The notes under the pieces are model-generated. The model searched no databases and was not told the origin of the DNA. It saw only the letters and a program-made list of their open reading frames with translations. The position numbers were made by a program, and so were the translations under genes. Source: Negaprion brevirostris (taxonomy: Eukaryota). Taken from it: 64,000 nt of DNA. Below, in pieces: positions 3,872 through 59,243 of the stretch (its first letter is position 1; each line of letters starts with the position of its first letter). Where the stretch lies: assembly GCA_030324005.1 (NCBI GenBank), contig JARDVH010000073.1, positions 105,321,686-105,385,685 on the forward strand, written 5' to 3'.

Positions 3872-3985
3872 TTGTTGAAAGCCCTCAAACAAAAGCTTCA
3901 TGAGAAGGTGGAGGTACTATTGGGAAGGACACAAGTTGTGGATGTGCTGCAGAAAGAGCTTGATGGGAGAGATCAACAGATACAG
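3872..3985 (+). CDS. GOLGB1: giantin-like exon A ([38 protein letters not shown]), phase 0-0
   Basis: ctgcag|TTG acceptor and CAG|gtgagg donor; 114 nt open; resembles human LVGRAQVVDLLQQEL. Confidence 0.88.
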
Positions 3986-6900
3986 GTGAGGAAAGAATTG
4001 CTTGATGCTTTGTAAATTGATGGTAAAAGAAAGATCTCTGCGATTGACTAGCTGACGGATTTTCTTTCAGCCTGTGGTAATATAATTTAAAGTGACAGAT
4101 AACATTTGTGGATCTTCCAATGTAATACTATAAAGTCTTGTTTGTGCAACACTCCCTGTTACCACACTTTATTTCCTGTTTTCACTTTTGTTTGTTAAAC
4201 TTTAACATCAAAGTGCCAATGTAATCAGTTATAATGAGAATTTCTAATGTAAACGGGTCCTGGTGGCGCTGTAATTCCAGATTATAGTCACTTATAGGCA
4301 CTGTAGATCAATGTTCTGTACTACCATGTTTTTGTAACACCTCAGCAACAACTCCACATAGCATTTACTAGTACATACCAAAAATATACTTAGGAGGTAA
4401 CAGATTCGCAATCCTTTGTATTTAAAAAAAAATCACTTACGGGATGTGGACTTGGCTGGCTAGACCTGCATTTATTGCACATCCCTAGTTGCCCTTGAGA
4501 AGGTGGAGGTGAGCTGCCTTCTTGTACCACTGCAGTCCCTGAGGTGTAGATACACCCACAGTGCTGTTCGGGAATGAGTTACAGGATTTTAACCCAGTGA
4601 CGGTGAAGTATAATGATATATTTCCAAGTCGGCATGGTGAGTGACTTGGAGGGGAACCTCCAGTTTTGTGATATTCCCAGGTATCTGTTACTCTTGTTCT
4701 TTTAGTAGCGGATGTTGCTCTGCACTTTCCTATCAACTGTTGTAGGTTCTCATTTGTTCTTTTAGTTCTTGTTTAATTTCATACGCTTTATATTGTTACA
4801 AAGGAGGACAGTTTTTCTACATTTATACTTAAGGTTTATAAAGGTCATTTTGGTTTGCTCTTTTCATTGAAGGGAAGTATGTGATTTTGAAATTTTCAGG
4901 AGATGATGGAAAAATTGAGGATTCTTCAGTTAGAAAAAGACAATCTTGAGGCTAAGCTTGATGCTGAAAAGCATGTGATGAGAGCCCAGGTAAGAGATCT
5001 GATGGAAAGACATGANNNNNNNNNNAGGCGGACTTGAAAAATATGAAAGAGAAACACAACATTCAGTTGCGGGCTATTGAAGAGAAACACGAAGCTGAAC
5101 TGACTGAGAAGGAACAGCACCAATTAAAACTTCAGAAACAATTGCAAGATTTACAAGCCCGTGATGGTTCTGTAGCACTAGAGACAACTGCTACTGTAGA
5201 TAATTCTACTGAACAGAGGATTAAAGAATTGGAAGGTAATTGCTCAAGCTTTATTGCTTTATTGATGTGCAAGTGTTGGTCCACTCTATACAGGATTTCT
5301 TCATGACACCCAAATAGATGGTAATTTGAGATGATCAGTATTAGCTTACTTTTATTACACATTTCAGTTCTATCACCTAATAACCAAACAAAAAGGCAGA
5401 TTACCTAGTCATTGCTCTTTATTGGACCTTTGTACAAATTAAATATTTAAGGTAATTAACCACAGTCCACAAGGGATTAAGGGAGATCTCTCTTGTGAGA
5501 AAGAAACAAGTGGTTATATTGCTAGTGAGGCACCACACTCCATCAAGGATGGGGAAAAGCAAGAAGCAGGCTTCCATGAACTTTCACAGTTGATTCGGGG
5601 GTTGTATCTATGCCATTGGCTTCATTCTGGATCACACTCTAGCCATCTAGTCAACTGAGTTAGTTAATCTCCACCTGATGCAAATTGACTGCCATATTTC
5701 CTGCATTCTATCACTGCATCATGTATTTTACAAAAATACTTGAGCTATATAAATTCTAGTCTTTCTTTCAGAAAGTTATTCAGGACTGACATTATTTTTT
5801 CCCCACTCAGAGGGCTGTGAATTATTGGAATTCTCAAGCCGAGAAGGTTATGGATAATCAGCCATTGAAGGATAAGATTGATCATTTTTTGAAATCAAGG
5901 GTTATGAATTTCGGACAGGAAAGTGAAATTGAACTTGAAGTTCAGCAATAGCTGAACAGACTGATGGGACTCTTGCTCCTGTTTCTAATGTTCTTGTGTC
6001 CTGGTCAGATCCTTTGATCAATAGACAGTGAAGTTTAGAGAACCCATGGAAAAAATAAACCCAGTAGAATTTAGTTCCTGTTACAATTATTGCTTTCACC
6101 TGTAGATATCATTGAAATGATCCAATAGTGAAGGTAGTCACCTGGGAGGTTGGGTGATTAATTTCTTTGTTGAACTTGGTGAATTATCAATTGACTTTTT
6201 TTTGGTAAAACTCCCTGACTGACATCATGAAGGAATTTAGGGGGCCCCTTCCATTCGTGGTGTCCTAACGGGGAGAGTGGTACTCAGTTGTTTCTTTATA
6301 AATTGCCACTAACCAGGAAGTGTTAATTCATCCAGACCACACCACAACTGAGACACTTCAATAATTCTGCAGACATCTTATTTTATATTACTTGAGTTTG
6401 AACAATAGTAAGGGGAAAATAATACAAGGGGTGAGAAACTGTAACGACGAAAGGAGATTGTGGGACAATACTGGGACTATGTTCTCTGTAACAGACAAGG
6501 CTTAAGAGGATATTTAATAGGGGTATTTAAAATAATAAAAGGCTTTGATAGAACAAATAGGGAATGACCATTTTCTCTCGAAATTAAGGAACAAAGGATC
6601 TTTAATTAAAAATATAATAGATGTTAAGAGACATTTTTTGCAGAAAGTTGTTGAAGTTGGAAAGCTTTGCCACTGGAGAAGTTGAAGCAGAGAGAGTTCC
6701 ATCTTTTACAGTAAAATTGGTAAATATTTGAATTAGACGAAGATATTGACTTGGGAAGAGAGTATGTTAGCCATAGTTTCGAATTATTCTAGCTGTGAGC
6801 CAGCTATGATGGATCAAATTCCTGCCTTTGGCTCTGTAAACTCTTATAGCTGTGAAGCACAATTTCTGTTTTGGATACAGGCATGAAATTAGAGATGTGG

Positions 6901-9900
6901 CAGTATCATGACTTCATTTTCCAATGTATGCATTTAATATGATAAATGTAAAGTTACCATTGTCATAAGATTGTTGATTACACCTATCAGTGTTTGCTTT
7001 TTAATTTTCACTTAGAGCTTGTCTATTTTGTATTGTCACTTGATTAGTATTTTTCAGTCATTTTTATCAATCATTTTATAGCCTGATTGCCCTTTAAAAT
7101 ATCATAATCTCTTGTGGGCCCTGCAGTTGATTGGTAACATAATGAATGATTAGATCTGGGTTTATTCACCCTGGCAAATAAAGCAGAATGTTTTCATGCA
7201 AGTAGCATCTCTGATGCTAGTAACTAATGCATTACTCCTTGTGAATTAACATTGCAAATGACAATGAAACTAAAGATGGGTAAAAACTCTAAGGATAACC
7301 ACATTAAATAAATAAAATAAGGTAACAAAGCTAGAACCAATTCATTCCTTTATGGATTCTGAGTTATATGAGGTTAAATTAATAACAGTGCACACCACTG
7401 TAATGTAGTCATGTCCTGACAAGATTGTACCCATTTAAACTTGTGTTACAATTCATTGTAGCATGACAGAATGATAATGTTGAACATATAAGAGGCAAGA
7501 AGGGAAAAATAACACATCATATAAACACATTACTCATGGCACAGTATTGTATTTTCAACAATTATAGTAAAGTCTTGATGGAAAAAACATAAAAACTGCA
7601 ATGACGCTACTAGCTTTCTATTATTTACAACAAAACATGGTAAAAATCTGCTTATGTTTATATTAGAAGAATCGTAATTCTTTGCTGCTGAGTTAAATGG
7701 TAATTTGAATTGTTCCGATGATTGTTAAAGATGTGTAATTAATATGTGTATTTTCATCCTTTTTATAGGACAACTGAAACTTAAAACGGAAGAGGCTGCT
7801 AAATCAGAGGCTAAATTCCTAAAAATGAAAGCTTGGTCCAAATCCAGAATCAGGCAGGCCGAAGAAGATCTCAGGAATGCAGTGGTATGTGTAAATCTTG
7901 ACTTCTGATATCTGGTGACTGCCTGTAAAAAGGCCTGTCTTTCTTTTATTGAAATGGGATTAAAATGCTAGGACCAAAGCCTCGAAATAGAAATGGGGTT
8001 GTTGTGATGGTACCTTTTTGTTTCATGAATGATTAAAACCTTCTTTCTTGCATTGGGTGTCTTGAGAGCTTTTTCACTGTGATGACTGTGCATAGCGAGT
8101 CTTGTGTCTTAGATCAACTATGTGAAGGGGTATTGAGTGATGGACGGCAGACCTGAATTTCAGTGTACAGTTTTTGCATCAAATGAAGAATGTGTGCACA
8201 ATACCAACAAGCCACTCAAGCCAACAAAATGATGCCACCTATTCACATGAGCAAAGTACCACTTAATCTCTGTCTAACCCCATTGGCATAACCTTTCAAT
8301 CCTGTCTCTTTGTGTTCATCTGCTATCTCTCTAACTGTGTCAAATTCACCATTTTACTGCAGAATTGCAGGTACTGACAGATGCAGTGCTAATCTTTCCT
8401 AACCAGGAATTGACATGAACATGCAGCAGGAACTGAATTACAGAATGAAAATGTGAAGTAGAAAGCACGTGTCACAATAACTGCAGAATATTCTGATTCC
8501 ATTTTAATATGCATTGACATTTATATTATCCATATTAGTAAATCCTTTGCTTCAATTTAAATTTTCTCTTTCACTTAGAGTGGAACTTCTCACCAAGAGC
8601 AACTTGCCCTCAAAAGCCGAGTTGCTGAACTGGAGGAGGAAAAAGGGGAATTGGAACAAAGAACAAATGATCTTGAAAAGCTCAGGGCACAAAATGGTAT
8701 GTGCAGCAATTGGTTTTGATTATTTTCTGTCCTTCTGTCGTTGTTATTGAGTGATGCTGCATTTTTCTTTCAGAGGCGCTTCTGGCAAAATTAGAACTGT
8801 ATGAAGAACAACAACAGAAAATGCAAGCAGATCTGGAACAAGTGACCAAACGGGCAACTTCCCAGGTTGGCAGACTTCTTTGTGTCGTATATAATTTATC
8901 CATGTGCAGTTTTACAATCTTATGATACAGATTTTGTACAATCTGAGCAGCCTCAAACTGTCAATGGATTTTTTGAATTGATGAGTTTTGTTTTCTTGTT
9001 GCTTATTTTAGATGTTTTAAAAATGGGGCATATGGCTAAGTTTGTTCTTTGGATTTTTTTTTGTTCCTTGTGCCTACCTGACTTGGTATCTGCAGTTAAG
9101 GTGGGCACTGTGCTTCCATGAAAGACTGCTTTGGTGTACATTATCAAACACATTTGTCTGCTTAATATTGGGTTGAGTAGTATTGGAAACAACAGAGCNN
9201 NNNNNNNNNNNNNNNNNNNNNNNNNNNNNNNNNNNNNNNNNNNNNNNNNNNNNNNNNNNNNNNNNNNNNNNNNNNNNNNNNNNNNNNNNNNNNNNNNNNN
9301 NNNNNNNNNNNNNNNNNNNNNNNNNNNNNNNNNNNNNNNNNNNNNNNNNNNNNNNNNNNNNNNNNNNNNNNNNNNNNNNNNNNNNNNNNNNNNNNNNNNN
9401 NNNNNNNNNNNNNNNNNNNNNNNNNNNNNNNNNNNNNNNNNNNNNNNNNNNNNNNNNNNNNNNNNNNNNNNNNNNNNNNNNNNNNNNNNNNNNNNNNNNN
9501 NNNNNNNNNNNNNNNNNNNNNNNNNNNNNNNNNNNNNNNNNNNNNNNNNNNNNNNNNNNNNNNNNNNNNNNNNNNNNNNNNNNNNNNNNNNNNNNNNNNN
9601 NNNNNNNNNNNNNNNNNNNNNNNNNNNNNNNNNNNNNNNNNNNNNNNNNNNNNNNNNNNNNNNNNNNNNATGGTGGGGGTTCATACAATTCCACAGTTGG
9701 ACTTACTGCTGCCCTACTGCCTGCCCCAATCTGTTAATTATATTGTTAGTATTCATAGGTGAATGGCATTGTTTACTTAAGTACTTTGTGTGTAGACAAA
9801 GGACATAATTGGTTTAACCAGAATATTATTAATAGTGGAGAGCTCAGTGTGGGAAGAGCTATGAAACCAAACAAAATCTACAAACCCTCAGTAAGGAAAA

Positions 9901-12900
9901 ATTTTCCGTCTTGGTTCTGACTTCATGAACTGGTTTGGTTCTTTGGTAGCAGAAGATGGCTGGGCTAAAGGTGAAGGGTGGAAACTAAGCCTTATTTTCA
10001 GGCAGAAGATTGTAATTGGAGTTACTCTGGAGAAGAATAGCTCAAAGAGTAAAGTATCAGCGTATGATTTTCCAGCATTGTTCTGTGAAGCTGAACTGTG
10101 TGACCAGTGGAAGAATGAAGTGGATACACAGACACGGGTTATCTTGTAACCAAATAAAAAGCAAGATATGGTCCTGGCACTTTCCATTTTGGAGCCAGAG
10201 GCTCATCAATTCAGCATTGGGAAGGATTTGGATAAACATAAAATTTATGGACAAAATTTATAAGACATACATATGAGTCATGGTCAGACGTTGACAAATT
10301 TAGGAAGTTGGTTGGCTATTTCATAGAAGAATATAGTGTGAAATTTAGCAGGTTATACACAGGATTGTCGAAAATCTATTCATTGCTTACTTTCAAAATG
10401 TTATGCTAAAGTGTTGAATGTGAATAGGCTTCTGATGTTGATTAGAGTTATTCTCAGAATGAGATACACCCGTCCCAAAAGCATCTGCAACTTTAAAAAC
10501 ATTTTTGGGGAAATGTTAATTTTCAGTCACTTTCATGGCACCATGAATTACCCTTCAGCATAAATCAAAAGATGGAGGATTCAATGTTGGCAGCATTTTC
10601 AGAGCGTTTATAGATGAAACACAAGTGTCAGTGTGAAAGAAGAATGAACAAAATGAAGATAGAGCCCCTTCTGCTAGCTCTAACAAACAACAGGAATTGG
10701 ATAACCAAAGCAGGAGAGCGAACCCCAGAAATATTGGAGAAATGGTCGCAGGTTTCAGATGTGACTCAAAGTTATTGTGCAGTGGATTGCCTGAAATAAA
10801 ATAACCGAATTTTTGAAATGGAGGGTTTGGGCATAGAAGTTGATGATCAGTCAGAAGTAATTGGTCACCAGTTACGTGGTACTGGATGTTCTCATTGCCG
10901 ACTCCTTCTGTTATGCTGTATTAGACAGTGGGTGCATGTCCAAAGTGTGTGGAGTGGATTGATTAAAATGTCTGGATTGTCTAAAACCGTATTAAAGTTA
11001 TAGTAAAGTTTATTTACTTGACATCTACAGATGATTTGTATTAAACTCACTAAAGAGAGTGGTGAGTGCATGTAAAATAGCCAGGGTAAACCATTTTATC
11101 AACATAGATGTACTATCCAGTGAAATACCCTGCCTGTGAGCTATCTATGAAAAAAGTTCAGATGAAATTTGATACGGAAAATGATAAGGCTATTTTGTTT
11201 TTGAAAAATCTGTAGATTTAGAGTTTGCACAAACAGAACATCATTGTATCCCCCTAACATTCCTAATCAACATATTAAAGAAGTGCTGATGACATCAGGG
11301 TTTTGACTTCACCAGCTGGCTTGGATCCTGTGAACACTGATCTGGAATTTTGCAAGTTGATCTGGCCTGGCCATGCCCCAATTCTGGCCCATTAAATAAC
11401 CAATTATTAGTGACTTAAGTTTCCTACCCAGTTGCAATTTTGAGAATGGCATGAAGACTTCAGCAACAGGGGTGAAATTCGGCTGGTCACCCTGCTTGGC
11501 CTTGTATGGGAAGGGTGGGATACCTCCCTCAAGGTTCCCAGTTTTACATCAGGTCCTTGGCACCACCTTACTCCCAAGGTTCTCTCTCCAGGCTATTCAA
11601 GACAAAGGAACACTGAAAGGAGCGTTGGAAAACCTGAGGGCCAATCCTTGCTGCGAACAGCTGAGGGAGAACATTGTTTGAAAAAAAATTCTAAGGTGTG
11701 TCTGTTTGAGAGAGGAGTTTGGAAACACTTGGGTGGATGCTGGAATCCAGTGAGATCAGTTTGCTCACAGTGTAATAGTCATCTGGGGGGAGCAGGGCAG
11801 AATTTGAGGAGAAATCCCAAGGAAGACCAATTCAGTGGCATTCGCCACTTGGTTTCAGAGTGGATTGTTGTCTCACCATAGGTAGCCTGTTGGGTTACAG
11901 GGACTGTGTGTTTATTGAAAATTTTCTAGTTTAAGATACATTTTGTTATCTATATTCTTAAAATTGTTTACATTTGTGACGATAAGTAGGAGTGAAGGCG
12001 TATCATACTGTAATCAAACTTTTAATGTTGAATAATTTTGTTTTTGGCGTTAAAAGCTAATTGGCAGTCCTGTGACTCTATTCATCCACTTTCTCTAAAC
12101 AAATTGTAAGTTACAGTCTTTTGAACCAGGGTTTGATTCTGGGAGTAGTAATGCCAACTGGGAACATAACACCACTATTAAAACTCCCACACTGACATGG
12201 TCCTGGACTCTACAGCATTGAATCTGGGGACTGCTTGTAGTCCTGTTCTTGGTCATTGCTGCGACTGAGGCTGCTGGGGCTACAGAGCTACTTGCCAATC
12301 AGATTGACTGCCACCTGTGTGAGGAGTGGAAGTACTGTCTCCAGCTAATAAATATTCTGTAGGATGAACTGGTGATGGGGCTGCTCTCTGATCAGTGGGG
12401 ATCAGTTCACTGCTGACTTTTTGGTGGTGGGGTGAGAAATTCCGCCATCTGAAAATCCTGTCTATCCGGCATTACGCTATCCAAAAATTACTGAATATTC
12501 ACTCGTTGCATAATTTTCAACAGCGAATAATTGAGGACCGGATACTTTATGAATGAACTCACTTTGGAAAAGAAAGTAATTTTACAGTTATATGTGACAG
12601 CACTTGAAGGAAGAGGCCATTCGCTTCATCAAAGCAGTGCCAGTTTTGCTGTATCACTTTGAGTCTTTGATCTATTTGACGCACCGTTGACCAAATATAG
12701 TTGAGATGCAAATGGGCACAATTACCGCTGCTTTACCTAATGGCCACATGTTCTCAATATAATGACATTCACAAGAAGAATGTGTAATTATCCAATTAGA
12801 CTTCTGGCTGACTGCACATTTATGTAACGTCCCTGTAGACAAGTGAATCTGGCAGTGCTGAAGAGCTGCAGAGTCGTTTGCTTGAGTGGCAAGAAATGGT

Positions 12901-15900
12901 TTCTGAATCGGCACGGGGCCAGGCCAAAGAGGAGAGAGCTGTCATGGAATTAAGGATGACACAAATTGAGGAAGAAAGAGAAGGTAAATTACACAATTCT
13001 ATTGTTGAACCATTTATATATTTTACTATGAGCAGTTTAATAGATTTGAGTGAGTGTTGCAATTCGGTTGCATTTAAGGGTCTAGCATCTTCTATTAATT
13101 CCGATTGAGGTGTAGAATGTTTGTGGTTATTTGAACCAGACCTTGTATTTTGACAACTACAGGACAAAGCATTTAATACATCAGCTGTTCCTATGCAAAG
13201 TTTTCGGATCTCTTCAACCTCAGTATAGGATTTGCTAACTGTGTTTGGACATATTTCTGAAGGTTTCGTTGCATAACATCTAGCCTCCAACTACTCCACC
13301 CCAAAGCTCCTCCATTGGTTGTCCTCCAACACATCAACCCTCTCAGTATTCGCTATTTCCCAACAATTAGAGAAGGAATAGGCTCTTCTCTGCCTGATTG
13401 TATGCTTCCTGACACAGTTCAATGGCCTGTTTTTCCCCATCCCCACAACATTTTTATAACTCAAATGCAAATGTTCAAGGGAAAAAACACTTTATTTAAT
13501 GCTACTTTGACTTTTCTTTTATGTTGCTTGTAGCCATGTCTTGGCAATTTATCTTTAATTCTAGGAGATACCAGGACAGGGTTGGAAAGTTGGTAGCTCT
13601 ATTCTAGAGGTGCATTGCAGTACCTGCTATAATAAGATACAGCCGATAAAACAAACCTGAGAGGCGCATTGCAGTACCAGCTAATCAGATACTGCTTATA
13701 AGATGCCAAAAAGAAACACGTTAAACGTTAGTGAGAAAATTCTTCAATCAGACTTTAGAATGCAATAAGGGTGACCTTAAAGGATCTGAATAAGACCCAT
13801 TATTATTCTCGTTTGATGTGTGATTGAGCTCACTCATCGTTGCTTCCGTTTGATGCTGCACCGCCTGCCAATAGCCATCTATTTGTCTGTCCCCATAATA
13901 TGCCCTACATTTAGTAGAACCCATTTGCTTTTAATAATCCTTGACTGAGGGATATTTATACCTATAGAGTATTAATAAAGGAATAAAGCTTAATGGCTGA
14001 AAAAGTGGCATGATTAATGGCTCTGCCATTAAGAGACTGCATTTACACTGTAACTATTGCTTGGGTCCGATCCAACTTGAGAGCACAGAGGGATAAAACT
14101 CCCTGCATGGGAGAGGCTGGCTTTGCTTAGCTCTGGTGCCTGGACAGGCTCTGTTTTCTCTTTTAATTAAAGCTTTTAAATGTTGATGCAAGTTGTACTT
14201 TAAGTGCTGTTGAATTGGGTGGTGAGAACACTTGGGAGTATGCTACAAGTGGAACTACTCAAATTACTTCGATCCTTGGAATCATAGTCATTTGAACCTG
14301 AAGAATGCATTGGTCTGAACACACGTTTTTTTCCCACTATTTGCTGCTTTATAGATATTATTATGTCTTGCCCACCAATTCTGTGCCTATGAAGATTGCT
14401 GCCATTGTGACTGCAAATGCTCCATTAATGTGCAACATTGTGATATGAAGCCACTGCTGTCATGGATTAACTTACTGTAAAATATCGTTTTACTGAGAAT
14501 TAATTTCACCAATCTGTTTTAGATTTTGTCACTTAGGGATATATTTTATCATGAAACACAGCTATTATCAGTTACTTATCTTGTATAAAATGATATCAGC
14601 TCCAGCTATACATTGCTGGGTGCAGCAGCCTCCATTTATATATTGCAGGAACCATCTGTGCTAATTAAACCTTATTTATATAGTTTAGATGGACTCACTA
14701 CAGCTTAACTAGTGAAAAAATATATATTTTACAACTTCCGTTCCATTTGCAAGTTCCACAATCAGATTTCAGCGCAAGGCTCCAAACTTTAAACTGAAGG
14801 AACGTAATACAATACAAACGTTAATTGTTGACCATCTCATTTCAAACTGAGATACTTTTGCTATTTCTTCAAATGCCATTATTGCCCAGCAAACCATTCC
14901 CAACTTAATGACGTTGAATTAGAGTCATAGAGGTTGACAGCATGGAAACAGGCCCTTTGGCTCAACTTGTCCATGCTGCCATTCTGGTAAGTAAGGTTCT
15001 ATTGTGTTAAATACAAAATTCTGACAAAAATACACTTAAATGATGAATTTGCATGAATATTTAAATAAACTCTGATCATAGTTATTGATCATATTAGTAT
15101 TGACTGTGCTTTCTGGTGAGAGGTTTCCAATCATTTGCACTTTTGGAATAGTGATTTTTTTTTTACATTGAGCCATTGAGGATTTAGCACCTTTCATACT
15201 GCGAATGCCATTTTTGTCCATTGAAAATGCACAATTAGCATTGTCCATAAATCTGTATTGCTAAACGTTAGCAGTTGATGATGGTGCAATATTAAAGTAA
15301 AAGTTTATTTATTGGTCACGAGTAAGGCTTACTAGGGAAAAAATATATATATTTTACAACCTCGGTTCCATTTGCAAGTTCCACAGTCAGATTTCAGTGC
15401 AAGGCTGCCAAACTTTAAACTGCAATGAAGTTACTGTGAAATTCCCCTAGTTGCACAGTCCAGTGCTTGCTCGGGTCAATGCACATAACCAGCACGTCTT
15501 ACAGAATGTGGGAGAAAACTGGAGCACCCGGCGGAAACCCACGCAGATACGGGGAGAACGTGCAAACTCCACACAGACAGTGATCCAAGCCAGGAATTGC
15601 GCCCGTGTCCCTGGCGCTGTGAAGCAGCAGTGCTAACCACTGTGCCGCCCACAATTAATGGGATAGAGAATATATTTGAGTTTTCACAAGTTTTGGAAAC
15701 CAAATAAGAGATGTGCAATCAAAGGATTAGCTTAAATTTTCCCACAACTGTTTTAGACTGAAAAGTGGCATTATTGGATAGAAACTTGCCCATAACATTA
15801 ACTTGTCTGATGCTTCTTTGCATACTTTTTAAGTTGGATTTTTTTTTGCCTCCGTTTCAAATATATCCATGGCGATGTGATATAAAAACTCTTGACTTCT

Positions 15901-51900: not shown

Positions 51901-54900
51901 AAGTTTATGCCTGTATATTTATGCATTGTCTATTGGATCCAGTGTACTACAAACACATTCAATTTAAATAGTTTTAAGATATATGTTTTTGTTTTAGCCA
52001 TTAGAACTTGTATCCTTGCTGGGCAGCGAGAATGTTGCTGAACAAGTGAAATCCTTGTTAATGGAAAAGAAACAGCTGCAGAGTGAAACTCAGGGTTACT
52101 TACAGGAGATTCACCAAAAAGAACAACGGTTCCAACAGCTGAATAGCAAGGTAATTTAGGTTCATTTATGTACAATGCTTCAGATAACTATGAATTTAAA
52201 TCTAGTGCTAAATAGTTGTTTGTAGTGTTTATGGTTTGATTAGATCTTACAGGGCAGCATGGTGGCACAGTGGTTAGCACTGTTGCTTCACAGACCCAGA
52301 TTCGATATCTGCTTGGGTCACTGTCTGTATGGAGCTTGCACGTTCTCCCCGTATCTGCGTAGGTTTCCTCCGGTTGCTCCGATTTCCTCCCACATTCTGA
52401 AAGATGTGCTGGTTAGGTGCATTGACCCAAGCAGCCGCCGAACCGTGGTGACTAGGGGAATTTCACAGTAACTTCATTGCGGTGTGAGTGGAAGCCTTAC
52501 ACATGACTAATAAATAAACTTTTAACTTTACAATCATTCACTGTCTCACCAACACAGGTTATGCAGTGCATTGAAGAGAAAGCCACATTATCTAGCCAAC
52601 TAAAAGCAGTCTCTCAGACTCTGCGTGATACCCAGACACGTTATGGGGATCTCCAGGATCGTTACTACAGATTGGAAAGACAATACCAAGCTATACGCTC
52701 ATCATTGCAGAATGAGGATCAAGTAGGTGGAGTATAAAAAGTAGCTGGATAGATTCAGCAGGTCTGGCAGCATCTGTGGAGAGACGTAAAGAGTTAATGT
52801 TTCAAATCCATATGACTCTTGGGAGCTGAAGAGGGAGAATTGTATGGATTTTAAGTNNNNNNNNNNNNNNNNNNNNNNNNNNNNNNNNNNNNNNNNNNNN
52901 NNNNNNNNNNNNNNNNNNNNNNNNNNNNNNNNNNNNNNNNNNNNNNNNNNNNNNNNNNNNNNNNNNNNNNNNNNNNNNNNNNNNNNNNNNNNNNNNNNNN
53001 NNNNNNNNNNNNNNNNNNNNNNNNNNNNNNNNNNNNNNNNNNNNNNNNNNNNNNNNNNNNNNNNNNNNNGACGAAGGATTATCTAAACATTGGCTTTATT
53101 CTCTCTCCACAGATGTTGTCAGACCTGCTGAGATTTTCCAGCATTTCTATTTTCATTGCGGTCTCCTCTGCTGGGAGACTAAACGCAGACTGGGTGACCA
53201 CTTTGCAGAACACCTTTGCTCAGCCTGCAAGCATAACCCCAACTATTCTGTCGCTTGTGATTTTAACTCAGCATCTTGCTCTCCTGTCCACATGTCTATC
53301 CTTGGCCCATTGCGGTGTTCAAGTGAAGCTCAACGCAAACTGGAAGAACAACACCTCATCTTTCTGGTTAGGCATCTTACGTCCTTCTGGACTTAATATT
53401 GAGTTTACAGTCTGCTTTAGACGGTAAACTTGCTTTCCACGTTGACCCTTTTGTTTTACAATCCAAAATCATTTTTGTCCTAATGCTACTACCTTCCTCC
53501 CCTACAGGACCATCTGTGACTTGTTCTTTATTCTGCTTTCAGGTTCTGCTATCTTACCTTAATGTCACTATCAGCAACTCCTATAGTCCTTAACACTTTG
53601 TTTGTCTTGTGCCCAAAACATCTTCACAAAATCACTCCTACTCACATCTATTACCAACATTTTGTTTTTATTTTTCTCTATCCATTTTCTAACAGCATAA
53701 CATCAATCACCTTTCCTCTTCTCTTTAGCTCTGGACAAGAGTCTTATGGATATGAAATGCTAACTCCTTTCTGCACAGATGCACCTAGACCTGGTTTTCT
53801 CTTTCTATTTTAGACTTCCAGTATCTGCAGTATTTTGCCTTTATGAAAAGTAGCAGGTTGTCCTGTAGAATGTTCTCATTTGCAACCCTATTTAAAATAC
53901 AAAATACTGAAGGGAAGAAGGGATAAAGTAGATGCAGAAAGTAGAAAGATTAAAACTTAAGGATAGAAAGAATGAGAAAGAACAGAGATGATGAGGATAA
54001 TGTTGGACAACAATGTAAACTTTAAACAATTCTTATAGATATATTAAAACACCATAACTACATGTTCTTAAATATGTAAAATTGTGCACCGTTCAGTAAT
54101 GATGTGGAGATGCCGTTGTTAGATTGGGGTGAGCACAGTAATAAGTCTCACAACACCAGGCTAAAGTCCAACAGGTTTATTTGGAATCAGCAGCTTTCGG
54201 AGTGCTGCACCTTCATCAGGCGATGAAATTCTTTGTTCTTGTCTGTGAGTAGAGAGTTGGGTTCACAAACAGGGCATATATCGACAAGACTCAATTGCAA
54301 GATAATGGTTGGAATGCGAGTCTTTACAGATTATCAAGTCTTTACAGATATGAACAATGCGAGTGGAGAGAGGGATAGTCATAGGATAAAGAGGTGTGAA
54401 TTGTGTGTGTGGAACTTGGCTATCAAAGCCAAATTCCGCACACATAAGGACAGCCTCAACCGAGATCTTGGATTCATGTCGCACTACGCTCCTTTACCTG
54501 ATGAAGGAACAATGCTACAAAAGCTCATGATTCTAAATAAAGCCGTTGGACTTAAACCTGGTGTTGTGAGACTTCTTACTGAAATAGTGTTGAACCTGAA
54601 ACTGGTGAACGGCACAGTAGTTGATTAGTTAAATACATTAGGATTCAGTTGATGTTAAATGACAAACACTGTACTAACCTTTAATTCCTTCTCAATCCTA
54701 AATGTAAACTTAGATTTGCTGTGTACCGTCTACAATTCCTACCTAATTGATGGCCATAGAGGGTTTGACATTAAGGATGAGAATTTTAAAATTGAGGTGT
54801 TGCTGGATCTCGGAGCCACTGTGTTTCAGAAGTGATGGATGAACACAACTCGGTGTGAATAAGGATGTTTTAATAATTTTAATCTTCTTCTGTAGCCAGG

Positions 54901-57900
54901 TCACGGAACAGCAGCGATTAAGCTTTGGCAATCGCAATCATGTTTCCAGCCAATGGAGGATTTTTCTTTTGCCAATTGACCAGTTTTTCTTAGCCTGAAC
55001 TTTATAGGCAATCCAAGTGTTAATTAAAATTGGATTCTTATCTTTTTGCGGCTGTGCTATAGAATGAAGCTAATGAAGAAGTTCCTCCAGGAGCTCCCCA
55101 GGAGCGTGCCAGCGTGATAGTGGAAATTGACAACTTGGAGCTGATTGAACTACGGAGGAGGTGAGTGTTATTTGTTCTGCATTTTTACAGCACAGTTATT
55201 TCACCTACTCAGAGCCCAAGGAGGAATTTCATCAATGTATAAAAAATGTTTGTGTATATTTTAAATGAGTCTGGATTTGGTGAACTTTATGAAGTTCAGC
55301 AAAGAGAGTTTTCTGGAGATATCAATTACTTTTCAACAAATAATTAATCACATCAAAAGAAAAAAGTCTCTAGTGGTTAAAGAGAAGGGATGGACTATCA
55401 ATTATTAAATGAAAGAAGCTCGGTACTAGGACGAAGCTAGGGCAGCATGGTGGCACATTCGTCAGCACTGCTGCCTCACAGCGCCAGCGACCCGGTTTAA
55501 TTCCCGGCTTTGGTCACTGGCTGTGTAGAGTTTGCATATTCTCCTTGTGTCTGCGTGGGTTTCCTCCGGGTGCACCGGTTTTCTCCCACAGTCTGAAAGA
55601 CATGCTGGTTAGGTGCACTGGCCATGCTAAATTCTCCCTCAGTGTACCCGAACAGGCGCCAGAGGTGTGGCAGCTAAGGAATTTTCACAGTAACTTCATT
55701 GCAGTGTTAATGTAAGCCTACTTGGGGAGGACATGTAGATTCCGCACAGACAGTGACCCAAATCAGGAATCGAATCCAGGTCCTGGCACAGTGAGACAGC
55801 AGTGCTAATCACTATGCCACCTTTGTGCAGTGGATACCAATTCACTAATTTTCTTGTAGCTGGAACTTGATCTGATTCTGACTGGGGAGGATATGTTCCC
55901 ACAAAAGATAGGTACAACATAAAATTAGCAGGGCCAGAATGATCCTTCGACCTTGTTTTGACTATTTAAGGGAGTTGGGGAGGAATTTCCTGCAGTTTAC
56001 TTCCTCATGTTGACCCAGGCTGCTAACTTTTTTTTGCCTCTCCAAGGGGATCGCAAGGATGGGAAGAGGGAGAGTATGTATGTTAATACAGAGGCTGCCA
56101 TAATTGTATGGGATAGGTTGGATCTCTTCCTGTCTGGCAGTGTTTATATGGTAGTAAAGTCTTCAGTGAGGGAGGTTGTAAGTACAGGGACAATATGAGC
56201 TATTTAAAAGAGAGACCCGAATCAGAAATAATTGATGTGAGTACTGATACTGCGATTTCCCACTTCCAAAGAACTCTATTTGGGAAATTATGAACCAGCT
56301 CCATCTGAAGTTGGCAATTTTAATAATTGAAAATTTGGGCCAAAAATCCATGATTCTTCACACTGAGGGTGCTCATTCATGGAATCAATCCTCTGAAGAA
56401 ACAATGGAAATAGTGGAAACCATAGCTCAGAAAAGGGCAGACAAGCTTGTTGGACTGAATGGCCAACTCCTGTTTCACTGATCACTTGCCTCTGTCTTAG
56501 AAACCTTTAGTGTTATCTATTGTGAAGCATCCACAATGTTTGAAAGTTAGAAATTGGTAGCTCTTAATGAAATCTGCTGAATAACTTCAAATTTGCACAT
56601 ACCTAGAGAATGCAGAAATTCCCAAGTACTTCAGTGACTCTGATAAGGCGTCATGTAGTTGCAGAGATATGTTTCTCAGTGATTGATACATTTTATGCCA
56701 TTTAATATTCAGCACTTGAAAGCAAATTTCAAGAAATGTTTTCAGTATCAGTCTGGCTCTGTGGTATCTCAGTTAGTAGTACTTTGATTCCAACCCAGTT
56801 CCAAGACTTGAGCACACAATTTGATGTACATTTCTGTACGGTGTAATGCTCGAAGTGCTGGCCTTTGGATGAGACACGAAACTGAGGCACCATCTGCCTG
56901 TTCACATCAACATAAAAGACCCCATGTCACACTTCATAGAAAAGGATTACCCAGCCAAACTTTAACCAACAATGCCTGAAGAATGTGTATGTTAATTGAT
57001 CATTTCTCTTATGGCTGTTTGTGGAACCTCACTATTTGCAAATGGGCTGTCAAGTTTGCTGACAAAATAACAATGCTTGAACTGCAAAAATACACAGTTG
57101 GCTGTGAGGTACTTTGAGACACCATAAAAGGGTTAAAGTTGCTGTCCAAATGCAGGTATTTATCTGTTGCTTGTCAGTCACAGACTTTGTTGTTGCTCAT
57201 GACCTAGGCTTGCGGAATCGGATCAACGTAATGATTCTGCTCACCAGGAGCTGTCTCAGTTAGCGGAAATGCTCGCACATGAAGAGCTAAGAAGAAGTGC
57301 TGCTGAGGAAGCATTGATGGCAGCTGAAGAAATGCTTAAGCGGTCAGTGTTAAAACTCACCCTCTTTCATTTTGAATTGTCCTGGAGCATCGTGTAAGGA
57401 TATCGCTGCCCTGCCTGTCCCGGTTCAAATTACATTGTTTAAAGTAGTTGTTCTGATGCATTTGAAAATGAATGTGCATGTATGTATGGTCATCAATCAG
57501 CACGGTGTCATTACTGCATGGAAATGCTGAGCGATATCTTGGAATACACACTCTCTGTTTCAACTGAGCAGAGTTATCTTTCAGTATTTGAGTTTTTGCC
57601 CTGTGGTCAAAGACCTCTGAGTTTGTGTGCAGAAAAATAGAATAATCAAACTGCCTAGAAAGAAGCCCATCGTGTCCTCATGCCTGTCGCAGCGCTTTGA
57701 AAGAGCTATCCAATTAGTTTCACTCTCCTGCTGTTTCCTCGTAGTCCAGTGAACTTTTCCTTTATAAGTAGTGATCCAACTCCCCATTGAATGTTACTAT
57801 TGAATCTGCTTCCACTACCCTTTCGGCCAATGTATTCAAAGTCATTATGTGCTAAGTAAAATAAATTTCTCTTTCTCTCTTCCTTTTTTTTCACCAATTA

Positions 57901-59243
57901 GCATATTTCTGTACCTTCTGGTTGGCAAACTGTTTATTGAAAACAGTTTCTCCTTTTCTACACCAGCTATACCCCTCACAGAAAACTCCATAGTCTGCAG
58001 AAGGCTACACTCAAGCAACTGATCTTAACTTAGAGGAGAGAATCCCCTGGAAGCTTTACTTTCTCCTTTGGTATTTTTGGATATTTTGAAGATATTTTAC
58101 TGAGGATAGGAGTTGATTTTGGCTCATGTTGCTCTTTTGTTTCTAGTCTTGATACGCCTGCTGCCAGACAACCTCCCAGAGAGTACACCATACAACTGGA
58201 ATCAGATGAAGAGCGTGAAGCCTTGATCATAGACCCCAGTGAGCACGTTGTGGTTCGGAAGGTATGTAATGCTTTCCATATATTTTTGTGTGGATTTAGT
58301 TTGCTGAAAAATATTGCTTCCCCTCAGTACTTTACCCTTGTTTCCATGGTATTCTACTTCATGGGCATATATGTCCACCAGACCAGCTCATGTATTTCTG
58401 CACCTGTTATTCAGAGACCGCAAACATCCCACTTGTGCTGTGACACCCCATTCTAGATGGGGGAATATTTTCAGTTCTTTTGGAGTGGATACCCTTCTGC
58501 TCAACAACTGACAAATTGGTGTCATGCATTCAGTGATATGGGAACCTTAGGTAAAAGTCTCTGCTAGTAGTCAAAGGATGATCACTACACAAGAAAGCTA
58601 TTTGGTCTGTTGTGCTTGTCTTACCTCTTTGAAAGAGCTATCCAATTAGTCCCACTCCTCCTCTCTTCTCCCATGGCCCAGCAATGTTTTGTTGTTTAAC
58701 TTTTTTTTTAGTAAGTTGTGGGGCATGGGTGTCGCTGGCTGGCCAGCATTTATTGCCATCCATACTTCCCTTGAGAAGGTGGTGTTGAGCTGCCTTCTTG
58801 AGCAAGTGATGCAACTGAGTGGCTTGCTAGACCATTTCAGAGGGCAGTTGAGAGGGAACCACATTGGTTTGGCTCTGGATGTATGTCCAATTCCCTCTTA
58901 AGTGTTACTATGTAATCCTGTTCCATCTTCCTTTCAGGTAATGCATTCCCGATCAAAACAATTTGTTATTTAATAAAGTCTCTTCTCCACCCTGACTTTT
59001 TTGCCAATTGCTTTAATTCTGAATTCGTTCAGATTTATTGAGGTGGATGCAAATTAACTCCAACTCTTTATTCCTCCTTCCTAGGTAAAGCGAGGAGCGC
59101 TTTCCTTCAAGAGGTGGCTGCGTGGCCGAAGTTTGTACTGCTCAAAACTAATGAGTTCAAGGGCCAGGTCACGCTACTTAGNNNNNGCTTATTTCCTGAC
59201 ACTACATATTCTTGTGTTCATGTGCCTAACGGGACTTTTATAG
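3872..59243 (+). CDS. GOLGB1: Giantin/GOLGB1-family golgin (possibly a GOLGB1-like paralogue); multi-exon gene with its 5' end outside the window; 21 exons traced
   Basis: Motifs match human giantin as I recall it: [129 protein letters not shown], and a C-terminal TM with the Y...H signature. All exon phases join in frame. Confidence 0.93.
4437..4715 (-). mobile_element. 3' end fragment of an L2/CR1-superfamily LINE
   Basis: reverse complement of the tail at 35100-35315; the same tail recurs at 58720-58800. Confidence 0.7.
4900..5235 (+). CDS. GOLGB1: giantin-like exon B ([51 protein letters not shown]...EQRIKELE), phase 0-1, with a 10-N gap at 5016-5025
   Basis: ttttcag|GAG acceptor and GAAG|gtaatt donor; coiled-coil reading on both sides of the gap. 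Confidence 0.85.
7769..7884 (+). CDS. GOLGB1: giantin-like exon C ([39 protein letters not shown]), phase 1-0
   Basis: tttatag|GA acceptor and GTG|gtatgt donor; phases fit neighbouring exons. Confidence 0.87.
8579..8696 (+). CDS. GOLGB1: giantin-like exon D ([39 protein letters not shown]), phase 0-1
   Basis: polypyrimidine tract then ttag|AGT; AATG|gtatgt donor; resembles human LQKRVVELENEKG...LEELKAEN. Confidence 0.87.
8774..8865 (+). CDS. GOLGB1: giantin-like exon E ([31 protein letters not shown]), phase 1-0
   Basis: tttcag|AG acceptor and CAG|gttggc donor; follows a 77-nt intron. Confidence 0.85.
12839..12983 (+). CDS. GOLGB1: giantin-like exon F ([48 protein letters not shown]), phase 0-1
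   Basis: cctgtag|ACA acceptor and GAAG|gtaaat donor; 145 nt. Confidence 0.85.
15293..15650 (-). mobile_element. V-SINE with non-HE1 tail, carrying a ~90-bp templated insertion
   Basis: aligns to the copies at 26371-26661, 52252-52530 and 55440-55723 except across 15331-15422. Confidence 0.85.
16855..18780 (-). mobile_element. Penelope-like element remnants (terminal repeats plus decayed GIY-YIG/RT coding on the minus strand), interrupted by a gap
   Basis: repeated GATGCTGGAA..AAATGCTGG..CAGCAGGTCTGGCAGCATCTGTGG termini; 17990-18290 is the reverse complement of the endonuclease-like region at 53170-53405. Confidence 0.65.
19697..19803 (+). CDS. GOLGB1: giantin-like exon G ([36 protein letters not shown]), phase 1-0
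   Basis: atccag|CT acceptor and GGG|gtatgt donor; bridges the phase-1 end of exon F to phase-0 exon H. Confidence 0.8.
20576..20845. mobile_element. Penelope-like foldback remnant (inverted pseudo-LTR halves)
   Basis: 20576-20640 is the inverted copy of 20663-20729; same family as 54100-54580 and 61173-61692; decayed hammerhead at 20788-20823. Confidence 0.7.
21041..21164 (+). CDS. GOLGB1: giantin-like exon H ([41 protein letters not shown]), phase 0-1; alternative in-frame donor after 21131
   Basis: ttttcag|GGT acceptor; donors GGAG|gtttgt (21131) and ACAG|gtgtga (21164), both phase 1. Confidence 0.8.
21866..22069. mobile_element. short Penelope-derived foldback element with ~60-bp inverted arms and a ~12-bp target-site duplication
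   Basis: arms ~21900-21960 and ~22008-22069; flanked by tgctcacgatat (21852-21863) and tgctcacaatat (22068-22079). Confidence 0.72.
22390..22446 (+). repeat. compound (CA)n/(CATA)n/(CACG)n microsatellite
   Basis: directly visible. Confidence 0.85.
22905..23212 (+). mobile_element. CR1-family LINE 3' end
   Basis: RT C-terminal FFT.RVV..WNKLP-type coding followed by the GGGCTGAAAGGTCTGTTTCCATGTTGT tail. Confidence 0.8.
23840..24484. mobile_element. possible old non-autonomous DNA transposon (MITE)
   Basis: imperfect ~15-bp terminal inverted repeats agaccgattttgct ... agcaaaatctggccc; no clear TSD. Confidence 0.35.
24612..24742 (+). CDS. GOLGB1: giantin-like exon I ([44 protein letters not shown]), phase 1-0
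   Basis: atacag|GA acceptor and CAG|gtaagg donor; heptad pattern. Confidence 0.88.
26371..26661 (-). mobile_element. V-SINE with non-HE1 tail, full length
   Basis: tRNA-derived head, V domain and the tail ...CAGTAACTTCATTGCAGTGTTAATGTAAGCCTTACTTGTGACTAATAAATAAAC. Confidence 0.85.
27739..28145 (-). mobile_element. CR1 LINE 3' fragment
   Basis: begins with the CATAAGAACATAAGAA tail microsatellite; same family as 49828-50438. Confidence 0.8.
29436..29556 (+). CDS. GOLGB1: giantin-like exon J ([37 protein letters not shown]), phase 0-2, with a 10-N gap at 29542-29551
   Basis: ttgcag|AAT acceptor and AGG|gtaaga donor. Confidence 0.85.
30060..30275 (+). mobile_element. 5'-truncated V-SINE ending ~25 nt upstream of exon K
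   Basis: V-domain TCTGTGTGGAATTTGCACATTCTCCCCGTGTCTG and a CR1-type tail. Confidence 0.7.
30302..30470 (+). CDS. GOLGB1: giantin-like exon K ([56 protein letters not shown]), phase 2-0
   Basis: acatag|A acceptor and AAT|gtaagt donor. Confidence 0.87.
31321..31425 (+). CDS. GOLGB1: giantin-like exon L ([35 protein letters not shown]), phase 0-0, GC donor
   Basis: tctctattag|CTC acceptor; AAG|gcatgt is the only in-phase donor before the in-frame stop. Confidence 0.78.
31960..35315 (+). mobile_element. decayed L2/CR1-superfamily LINE (endonuclease-RT remnants and 3' end) with nested insertions
   Basis: SDH-type endonuclease end near 33170; [18 protein letters not shown] motif near 34455-34512; family tail at 35200-35315; many stops and frameshifts. 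Confidence 0.75.
32240..33065 (-). mobile_element. putative solo LTR nested in the LINE
   Basis: TGTAAG...CTTCA ends, near-TSD aaagc/aaatc, AATAAA on the minus strand at 32342-32347; LINE sequence resumes near 33115. Confidence 0.5.
35700..46095 (+). CDS. GOLGB1: giantin-like giant exon M (about 10.4 kb, about 3,460 aa coiled coil; [11 protein letters not shown]...IKQSDELE), phase 0-0; the 10-N gap at 43185-43194 splits it into the two long ORFs of the track
   Basis: ORFs 35583..43208 and 43045..46107; aatattcag|GTG acceptor and GAG|gtagaa donor; many giantin motifs. Confidence 0.92.
46469..46638 (+). CDS. GOLGB1: giantin-like exon N ([57 protein letters not shown]), phase 0-2
   Basis: ccttacag|TCA acceptor and GAG|gtttgt donor. 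Confidence 0.85.
46672..47225 (-). mobile_element. decayed Deu-domain SINE (SacSINE1-like) with a nested CR1 tail at ~46803-46955
   Basis: reverse-complement similarity to 56755-57165; AGAACATAGAACAT insertion. Confidence 0.55.
47864..47985. repeat. collapsed Penelope-terminus hairpin (~35-bp stem, 12-nt loop) inserted in a CR1 remnant
   Basis: acagtaagaagtctcacaacatcaggttaaaagtcc / ggactttaacctggtgttgtgagacttcttactgt. Confidence 0.8.
48345..49637. repeat. 136-bp inverted repeat pair (48345-48480 / 49502-49637) flanking exon O
   Basis: hand alignment gives 4 mismatches in 136 nt; the same spurious ORF peptides appear on opposite strands in the track. Confidence 0.92.
48582..48642 (+). CDS. 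GOLGB1: giantin-like exon O, 5' part only ([21 protein letters not shown]...); the rest is in gap 48643-48858
   Basis: tcttcttttag|A acceptor in phase 2; positional match to human LRMEKSSWEIHERRMKEQYL; donor not visible. Confidence 0.72.
49828..51890 (-). mobile_element. two adjacent CR1 LINE fragments (49828-50438 and 50441-51890)
   Basis: two tail starts (ATAAGA.. and TTAGAGTCATACAG..) each followed by antisense RT-like sequence. Confidence 0.78.
51998..52150 (+). CDS. GOLGB1: giantin-like exon P ([51 protein letters not shown]), phase 0-0
   Basis: gttttag|CCA acceptor and AAG|gtaatt donor; matches human LKEIHQKELRIQQLNS. Confidence 0.88.
52252..52530 (+). mobile_element. V-SINE with non-HE1 tail inside the short P-Q intron
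   Basis: GGGCAGCATGGTGGCACAGTGGTTAGCACTG head, V domain, and CTAATAAATAAACTT end. Confidence 0.85.
52558..52722 (+). CDS. GOLGB1: giantin-like exon Q ([55 protein letters not shown]), phase 0-0
   Basis: acacag|GTT acceptor and CAA|gtaggt donor; matches human LEEKNTLSIQL..SQSLRENQQHYGDL. Confidence 0.88.
52735..53845 (+). mobile_element. Penelope-like element remnant with a GIY-YIG endonuclease C-terminal fragment and inverted termini
   Basis: 53173-53405 translates [15 protein letters not shown]...VACDFNS...[24 protein letters not shown], with a frameshift; termini inverted relative to each other. Confidence 0.78.
54100..54580. mobile_element. internally deleted Penelope-like element with inverted pseudo-LTRs and hammerhead-like motifs
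   Basis: 54135-54222 is inverted against 54495-54580; encodes [20 protein letters not shown], typical of a GIY-YIG C-terminus. Confidence 0.8.
55063..55160 (+). CDS. GOLGB1: giantin-like exon R ([33 protein letters not shown]), phase 0-2
   Basis: ctatag|AAT acceptor and GAG|gtgagt donor; conserved PGAPQE. Confidence 0.9.
55440..55821. mobile_element. fused tail-to-tail V-SINE pair (+ 55440-55723, - 55724-55821)
   Basis: near-full + copy joined directly to the reverse-complemented head of a second copy. Confidence 0.8.
56755..57165 (+). mobile_element. decayed Deu-domain SINE (SacSINE1/AmnSINE-related)
   Basis: CTTGAGCACA..GGATGAGAC..AAAAGACCCCATG..GCTGTTTGTGG..GCAAATGGGCTG..TTGGCTGTGA..CTTTGAGAC..AAATGCA order matches the Deu-SINE layout as I recall it. 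Confidence 0.6.
57208..57342 (+). CDS. GOLGB1: giantin-like exon S ([45 protein letters not shown]), phase 2-2
   Basis: cctag|G acceptor and GCG|gtcagt donor; matches human RVAAENALSVAEEQIRR. Confidence 0.88.
58147..58261 (+). CDS. GOLGB1: giantin-like exon T ([38 protein letters not shown]), phase 2-0
   Basis: tttctag|T acceptor and AAG|gtatgt donor; EALIID corresponds to human EQALLID. Confidence 0.87.
59085..59243 (+). CDS. GOLGB1: giantin-like last coding exon with the C-terminal transmembrane anchor ([52 protein letters not shown])
   Basis: ttcctag|GTA acceptor; basic juxtamembrane stretch then a hydrophobic TM with the Tyr and His conserved in giantin/CASP/golgin-84; TAG at 59241-59243; the 5-N gap keeps the frame. 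Confidence 0.92.
   Translation, partial: VKRGALSFKRWLRGRSLYCSKLMSSRARSRYLXXAYFLTLHILVFMCLTGLL

Follow-up and report, generated by a model that had tools for sequence, protein, structure and literature searches.

A second giantin gene, probably spliced at two lengths, in Negaprion brevirostris

A 64,000-nucleotide stretch of the Negaprion brevirostris genome (contig JARDVH010000073.1, here C73, positions 105,321,686 to 105,385,685; hereafter the window) carries most of a very large gene related to giantin (GOLGB1). We consider it very probable that this gene is a second giantin, "giantin-2", which stems from a duplication at the root of the jawed vertebrates and encodes coiled coils of 4,671 and 2,547 amino acids that have the same head and tail anchor and would serve as Golgi tethers of two lengths. 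A sequence-only reading of the window had proposed an oversized giantin (about 4,360 residues traced) that is a distinct ancient paralogue of GOLGB1. Both proposals held: 22 exons encoding 4,354 residues were traced over 3,872–59,243, and an ordinary giantin was found elsewhere in the genome, with different neighbours and in a different clade of two trees.

Two giantin genes and their origin

Searches of the genome with a core query and with an exon 2/N-terminal query, in which best candidates only were scored, returned a single other locus, at 31.74–31.78 Mb of contig C130. This gene, the ordinary giantin, matches ray GOLGB1 exon by exon from its MLSRL-type start through its tail. Over its C-terminal part, the window protein shares 37% identity with this giantin, compared with 45–48% with the long proteins of turtle and coelacanth.

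Two trees were built from fetched proteins that were hand-picked for spread, one on the last 300 amino acids (43 rows) and one on different columns, from the core (23 rows). Both were quick IQ-TREE searches with SH-aLRT support only, and the cyclostomes were represented by one lamprey and one hagfish. Each tree contained a canonical GOLGB1 clade and a paralogue clade, both of which hold cartilaginous fish, ray-finned fish, lungfish and tetrapods; lamprey and hagfish fell in neither (support for the canonical clade, the paralogue clade and the split from cyclostomes was 100, 97 and 88 in the tail tree and 97, 100 and 96 in the core tree). The window gene joined its orthologues from fish, amphibians and sauropsids and stood outside the mammalian GOLGB1 clade. 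Since the two clades are present in both trees, the duplication predates the split between sharks and bony fish, and it likely followed the cyclostome split, at the base of the jawed vertebrates. This interval is that of an ohnologue from the jawed-vertebrate genome duplication. A duplication confined to sharks was rejected, as forcing the cartilaginous-fish copies into a single clade costs 102 log-likelihood units (p-AU ~1e-108). The paralogue core has a longer stem branch than the GOLGB1 core.

The flanking genes also separate the two loci. Two loci of the HS1-repeat family were found, one following the C130 giantin by 25 kb and the other the window gene by 1.05 Mb; against cortactin, the repeat exons scored 36 and 48 bits on C130 and 57 and 63 bits on C73. 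For the C73 cortactin no SH3 exon turned up within 106.33–106.47 Mb, and its identity as cortactin therefore rests on the repeat exons. The HCLS1-type gene on C130 has at least five HS1-repeat exon matches, two of them nearly identical. Human GOLGB1 is also a neighbour of HCLS1, and a snake gene model fuses GOLGB1 with an HS1-repeat gene. On C73 the order is giantin paralogue, SHANK (N-terminal exon 256 kb after the window), cortactin and, just past it, anoctamin, with a sterol reductase at 108.6 Mb; this presumably matches the human ANO1-CTTN-SHANK2-DHCR7 block. The window gene neither adjoins HCLS1 nor has the MLSRL-type start, both of which belong to the C130 gene. The checks named in the sequence-only reading (a tree with canonical GOLGB1, a second locus, flanking synteny) thus came out as it had anticipated, with ordinary giantin beside HCLS1 and its relative about 1 Mb from cortactin, the HCLS1 paralogue.

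Searches for EAF, SoxB1 and sterol-reductase genes gave no second flanking paralogue pair. An anoctamin is present on C130, 19 Mb away, and a search for NAD synthetase gave one weak match, elsewhere. Pairing with the SOX2/SOX3 chromosomes was ruled out by SoxB1 genes lying on other contigs. One neighbour pair supports, without proving, an origin by whole-genome duplication.

Gene structure, two-length splicing and protein anatomy

Six-frame scans revealed one long coiled-coil gene on the + strand, split by short N gaps. The Mustelus asterias protein (4,661 amino acids, 93% identical over the giant exon) was mapped onto the window and 40 kb of DNA upstream of it, which gave 29 coding exons with consistent phases, 22 inside the window (Table 1) and 7 upstream. 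The start ATG lies 12,475 bases upstream of the window, and exons 1–7, which carry the MWKW start, lie 2.4–12.5 kb upstream. The top matches of a 296-residue core query were shark and ray proteins of 4,660–4,730 amino acids, that of M. asterias first at 93% (best 120 of 722). Introns have GT-AG ends throughout except for one GC donor; one exon end falls in an N gap, and the donor of exon 14 was set by hand. The frame breaks at three 10-N gaps reflect assembly errors and not real frameshifts: read against the Mustelus protein, two are overlaps of 1 base, and at the third transcript contigs supply 2 extra bases.

In a related species, one contig of 12,585 bases covers 35,698–45,935 without interruption and is then joined to exons 22–25, which confirms the 10.2-kb exon 21 and shows that the gene undergoes splicing. 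The donor at 39,566 is in frame and is the sole site with 8 of 9 consensus matches among the 157 in-frame GT sites of this exon. Its use with exon 22 drops 2,124 amino acids, the entire classical giantin rod, and leaves a short form of 2,547 amino acids composed of head, paralogue-specific rod and tail. A contig with the short joint (39,566 to 46,469, GT..AG ends) was found in one of four runs, and contigs of two further runs end at 39,566 plus the first 29 bases of exon 22; the long joint, from the donor at 45,936, was found in all four. By their codes the three runs with short-form contigs come from different organisms and studies, and they are about 98% identical to the window. In these related species, the gene yields a very long and a half-length form by splicing.

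Many database isoforms of about 2,300–2,800 amino acids also skip the rod, and the short isoforms of three birds, a turtle, a paddlefish, a herring and a clingfish break at the identical residue. The break site bears a Q/K-V-S-x-K-x-E-E motif in 134 of 146 long records versus none of 72 canonical ones, and it coincides with the border between the paralogue-specific and classical rods. Judged from these records, short-form splicing is conserved in position from sharks to birds.

Windowed BLAST aligned residues 1–600 and 2,200 to the end with ray GOLGB1 (35–47% identity in the head, over three 200-residue windows), but not residues ~600–2,200. The paralogue-specific block (~600–2,163, 1,563 amino acids) is a heptad coiled coil that is 30–40% identical across paralogues and has no match in four ordinary giantins or hagfish giantin, which bears out the earlier remark that several exons lack a giantin counterpart. 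Autocorrelation peaks fall at multiples of 7 in this insert and in the classical rod. Pfam scans of paralogue proteins gave no informative family and did not confirm the "DH domain" in the name of a coelacanth record; the ESM Atlas returned generic coiled-coil clusters only. Three [15 protein letters not shown] repeats had been counted in the window against about five in human. Of the three [13 protein letters not shown] core repeats, two do lie in the main exon, but the third (46,003) is degenerate and past the donor at 45,936; in mammals other than human the same pattern finds 2–5 repeats, mostly 4–5.

At the N-terminus, 146 of the 152 records that have a complete start carry Trp4; the start reads M-W/L-K-W-(G/Y/F). 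The six exceptions are N-terminally extended predictions, five of which show the motif within their first 30 residues, and none of the canonical records (n = 75) has Trp in its first 10 residues; these counts include isoforms and are rich in birds. The median length of the fetched records is 4,843 amino acids for the paralogue versus 3,261 for GOLGB1.

At the other end, the juxtamembrane segment quoted in the sequence-only reading ([24 protein letters not shown]) lies at 59,109–59,180, followed by the Y-x4-H anchor that it had also recognised (from 59,175). The giantin family is marked by a conserved His, as well as by Golgi rim localisation, dimerisation and binding of p115 and ACBD3. The window protein ends in one membrane anchor that carries the Tyr and the His, with hardly any lumenal tail. 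Y-x4-H was found in 16 of 16 paralogue tails and 12 of 12 canonical ones, and shark–amniote tail identity is 72% for the paralogue versus 43% for GOLGB1. The mammalian GOLGB1 tail was read from species other than human. The idea that the paralogue's tail is the divergent one did not survive comparison with outgroups: the juxtamembrane segments of lamprey (22.5 bits on the paralogue profile versus −12.4 on that of GOLGB1) and spider (16.5 versus −0.8) match the paralogue, and those of hagfish and oyster are near background on both profiles. The paralogue likely keeps an older, ancestral-type tail, and this tail together with the longer core stem branch suggests a division of functions between the giantins.

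Partial proteins of the spider Stegodyphus (P0311) and the oyster Magallana (P0309) end in a giantin-type tail, scoring 52–54 bits on a 150-residue paralogue profile on which shuffles reach at most 10 bits. Neither has a golgin-84/CASP Pfam match, and no core repeats were seen in these partial sequences. Such tails conflict with giantin being called vertebrate-specific or, in PMC5840792, chordate-specific.

Table 1. Coding exons and other features of the paralogue, in window positions
Feature	Positions	Strand	Remark
Exon 8	3872..3985	+	From mapping of the Mustelus protein
Exon 9	4900..5235	+	10-N gap at 5,016 is a 1-base overlap
Exon 10	7769..7884	+	
Exon 11	8579..8696	+	
Exon 12	8774..8865	+	
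Exon 13	12839..12983	+	Approximate end of similarity to ordinary giantin
Exon 14	19697..19803	+	
Exon 15	21041..21131	+	
Exon 16	24612..24742	+	
Exon 17	25348..25395	+	
Exon 18	29436..29556	+	10-N gap is a 1-base overlap
Exon 19	30302..30470	+	
Exon 20	31321..31425	+	GC donor next
Exon 21 (giant exon)	35700..45936	+	10,239 nt, 3,413 codons; no intron at 10-N gap
Exon 21, part common to both isoforms	35700..39566	+	Paralogue-specific coiled coil; no match in ordinary or hagfish giantin
Internal alternative splice donor, CAG|GTCAGT	39564..39572	+	
Classical giantin rod, 2,124 aa	39567..45936	+	Long isoform only
First core repeat	44425..44466	+	
Second core repeat	45220..45261	+	
Optional in-frame extension with degenerate third repeat	45937..46095	+	In catshark database isoform; uncovered in the four runs compared
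Exon 22	46469..46638	+	Acceptor shared by long and short forms
Exon 23	48582..48741	+	160 nt by transcript contigs; mostly inside N gap from 48,643; end nominal
Exon 24	51998..52150	+	
Exon 25	52558..52722	+	
Exon 26	55063..55160	+	
Exon 27	57208..57342	+	
Exon 28	58147..58261	+	
Exon 29	59085..59243	+	Basic juxtamembrane segment, Y-x4-H tail anchor (from 59,175), stop codon

A few local features of the window were also recorded. The intron after exon 20 (from 31,426) is of the GC-AG type. The codons at 48,622–48,642, just before a 216-N gap, are unlike those of all orthologues and are probably a gap-edge error in exon 23. High-copy intronic repeats with dense contig coverage at 47,600–48,300 and 52,250–52,800 are probably short interspersed elements. 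Just before exon 14, positions 19,652–19,696 encode a nearly invariant, optional segment of 15 residues, DDWFFPGC among them, which was found in 46 of 191 paralogue records from shark to bird and may be a short binding motif; the acceptor needed for this segment reads AA, not AG, in this assembly.

Range, proposed function and alternative explanations

Proteins with the paralogue tail were found in sharks, rays, chimaera, coelacanth, lungfish, sturgeon, paddlefish, gar, teleosts (including a cypriniform), newt, frogs, tuatara, turtles, lizards and birds. The pipefish isoforms bear the symbol si:ch211-220f16.2, and zebrafish was not among the named matches. The gene had been put down as absent from mammals, which is incorrect: echidna (nine isoform records, 2,395–2,539 amino acids) and platypus (2,557 amino acids) carry a shortened copy that nests among the amniote paralogues on a long branch. 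The paralogue-specific rod is present in these copies (E 1e-107) and the classical rod is absent; the monotremes are annotated with a short, fast-evolving, rod-less form only. Over residues ~850–2,150, in the paralogue-specific rod, echidna P0276 shows a strong 110-residue tandem repeat that neither shark nor turtle has. No marsupial or placental copy was among the matches listed (best 120 of 722 and 120 of 323; 33 of 75 representatives named), and none of the unnamed full-length representatives fell with echidna; for short unnamed fragments, FastTree placed the rows unreliably owing to intron read-through. The gene was kept in monotremes and likely lost in marsupials and placentals.

By analogy with giantin, the tail anchor and juxtamembrane segment would place the protein in Golgi rim membranes, where a parallel coiled-coil dimer would project its N-terminus outward. 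At 0.15 nm per residue the upper-bound lengths are about 700 nm for the long form, 380 nm for the short form and 490 nm for ordinary giantin. The reach of about 600 nm suggested earlier is correct arithmetic for an unbroken coil, but it is not a measured length. The M-W/L-K-W start would likely capture intra-Golgi vesicles, as do the tryptophan motifs of golgin-84, TMF and GMAP-210. Choice between the donors at 39,566 and 45,936 would then set the reach and keep or remove the classical rod with its partner sites, the long form adding GOLGB1-like ones. A further step, which we put forward only tentatively and regard as doubtful in its entirety, is that such a length-switchable tether, its reach altered about two-fold by one splice choice, with a tryptophan-motif capture unseen for GOLGB1 and an ancestral tail that can be traced to spider and oyster proteins, buffers the loss of golgb1 in fish, and that decay in monotremes and loss in therians explain why rodent mutants die whereas zebrafish mutants are mild.

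Several observations weigh against a second giantin of this origin and function. Cortactin/HCLS1 is the sole flanking paralogue pair, so that the case for genome duplication consists of this pair and the timing, and the EAF genes are not on C130. The run closest to the window (X16) shows the long joint only, and the RNA status of the runs is a guess (none is recorded as RNA), though their contigs join exons at GT..AG sites. The short isoforms of anole and frog break further upstream, and several short records from teleosts and monotremes could not be aligned to the break site. MWKW differs from the M-S-W-L/F motif, and the monotreme predictions are without the tryptophan start. The therian loss is drawn from incomplete match lists, and the search with the echidna tail was too narrow, giving 2 matches in 62 candidates and missing known sauropsid short forms.

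We give practically no credence to the gene being the plain shark orthologue of GOLGB1, merely longer than in mammals. The head, rod, repeats and tail anchor are indeed held in common, and some databases call its members "golgin subfamily B member 1", but the C130 gene, with its MLSRL-type start and HCLS1 neighbour, is the one that groups with the mammalian genes. The date of the duplication leaves more room. A local or segmental duplication, or the first genome doubling, is somewhat unlikely as the source in place of the jawed-vertebrate doubling; it would fit the one flanking pair, the few cyclostome rows and the resemblance of the lamprey tail to that of the window paralogue, whereas cyclostome copies lie outside both clades in two trees and the loci are on different large contigs, each near one member of the HCLS1/cortactin pair.

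With the paralogue accepted as real, the short form might be splicing noise and the protein a structural rod of the Golgi matrix, or a linker of cisternae, that captures no vesicles, as GOLGB1 behaves in the mitochondrial assay. Vesicle capture by GOLGB1 in cells is described as not demonstrated in PMC6611411 and PMC5576078, very long exons are prone to cryptic donors, and the short joint is absent in X16. Against it, the donor is in frame and the strongest in exon 21, keeps its position between sharks and birds and falls exactly at the border of the two rods, and the monotreme records show the rod-less form only; we judge this account unlikely. Residues upstream of the anchor aid Golgi targeting (PMC5840792). 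These residues differ between the paralogues, which could mean that the protein is tail-anchored elsewhere, at endoplasmic reticulum (ER) exit sites, the ER–Golgi intermediate compartment or endosomes; with an anchor equal to giantin's in length and Y-x4-H and a tail type that looks ancestral, such a location is quite improbable. The reading that we favour remains a second giantin with a length set by splicing.

Comparison with GOLGB1 and other golgins

Giantin (GOLGB1, macrogolgin) and the window paralogue share the N-terminal head, the classical rod, the core repeats, the last exons and the Y-x4-H anchor. The paralogue differs in being about 1,400 amino acids longer, in starting with MWKW and not MLSRL, in its 1,560-residue extra rod, in its conserved half-length isoform, in a different and better conserved tail, and in having SHANK and cortactin nearby instead of HCLS1. 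It has one 10.2-kb exon where the C130 giantin has two large exons. The short isoform is without rod homology to GOLGB1, its head and last exons being homologous.

The same gene is present in databases as automated models named "golgin subfamily B member 1-like" or si:ch211-220f16.2 (sharks, rays, chimaera, coelacanth, lungfish, amphibians, ray-finned fish, sauropsids and monotremes), with inconsistent further names such as CEP250-like, COP1-interactive protein 1-like and uncharacterized. It is often misnamed GOLGB1, which is relevant to work on fish, frog and chicken. No publication was found under its database names, nor one linking golgb1 to "ohnolog" or "lost in mammals", in a search that mostly left subscription journals uncovered; the homologue tables of PMC5840792 could list it. 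The paralogue is thus apparently annotated yet undescribed. The literature consulted regards giantin as a single gene and as the largest of the golgins, and PMC5576078 states that golgb1 is not duplicated in teleosts. According to the same paper zebrafish golgb1 mutants are viable and mild, rodent mutants die late in development, and compensation was suspected; 13 other golgins and p115 were examined and no compensation was found, none of the other golgins being upregulated. The second giantin, which occurs in a cypriniform fish and in the si:ch211-220f16.2 records of pipefish, is a candidate compensator, and the question becomes testable. Its two-length splicing, which the sequence-only reading had not noticed, nor the N-terminal tryptophan motif, would be a natural experiment on the importance of tether length.

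Among other golgins, CASP and golgin-84, the tail-anchored rim golgins, have an anchor with a conserved tyrosine as the paralogue does (PMC5840792), and golgin-84 shares its anchor type; Pfam scans of the paralogue proteins gave no match to the CASP or golgin-84 families. Golgin-84, TMF and GMAP-210 share an M-S-W-L/F start whose Trp matters for capture in a mitochondrial relocation assay (Wong et al., PMC5267433), and tethering by giantin is stated in PMC6611411 not to have been shown. Like these three, which were compared by start motif only, the paralogue is a long coiled coil of Golgi type with a conserved Trp among residues 1–4, in M-W/L-K-W-(G/Y/F) and not the exact M-S-W-L/F. We regard this likeness as a lead, and through the tryptophan start one could examine if vesicles are captured by any giantin at all.
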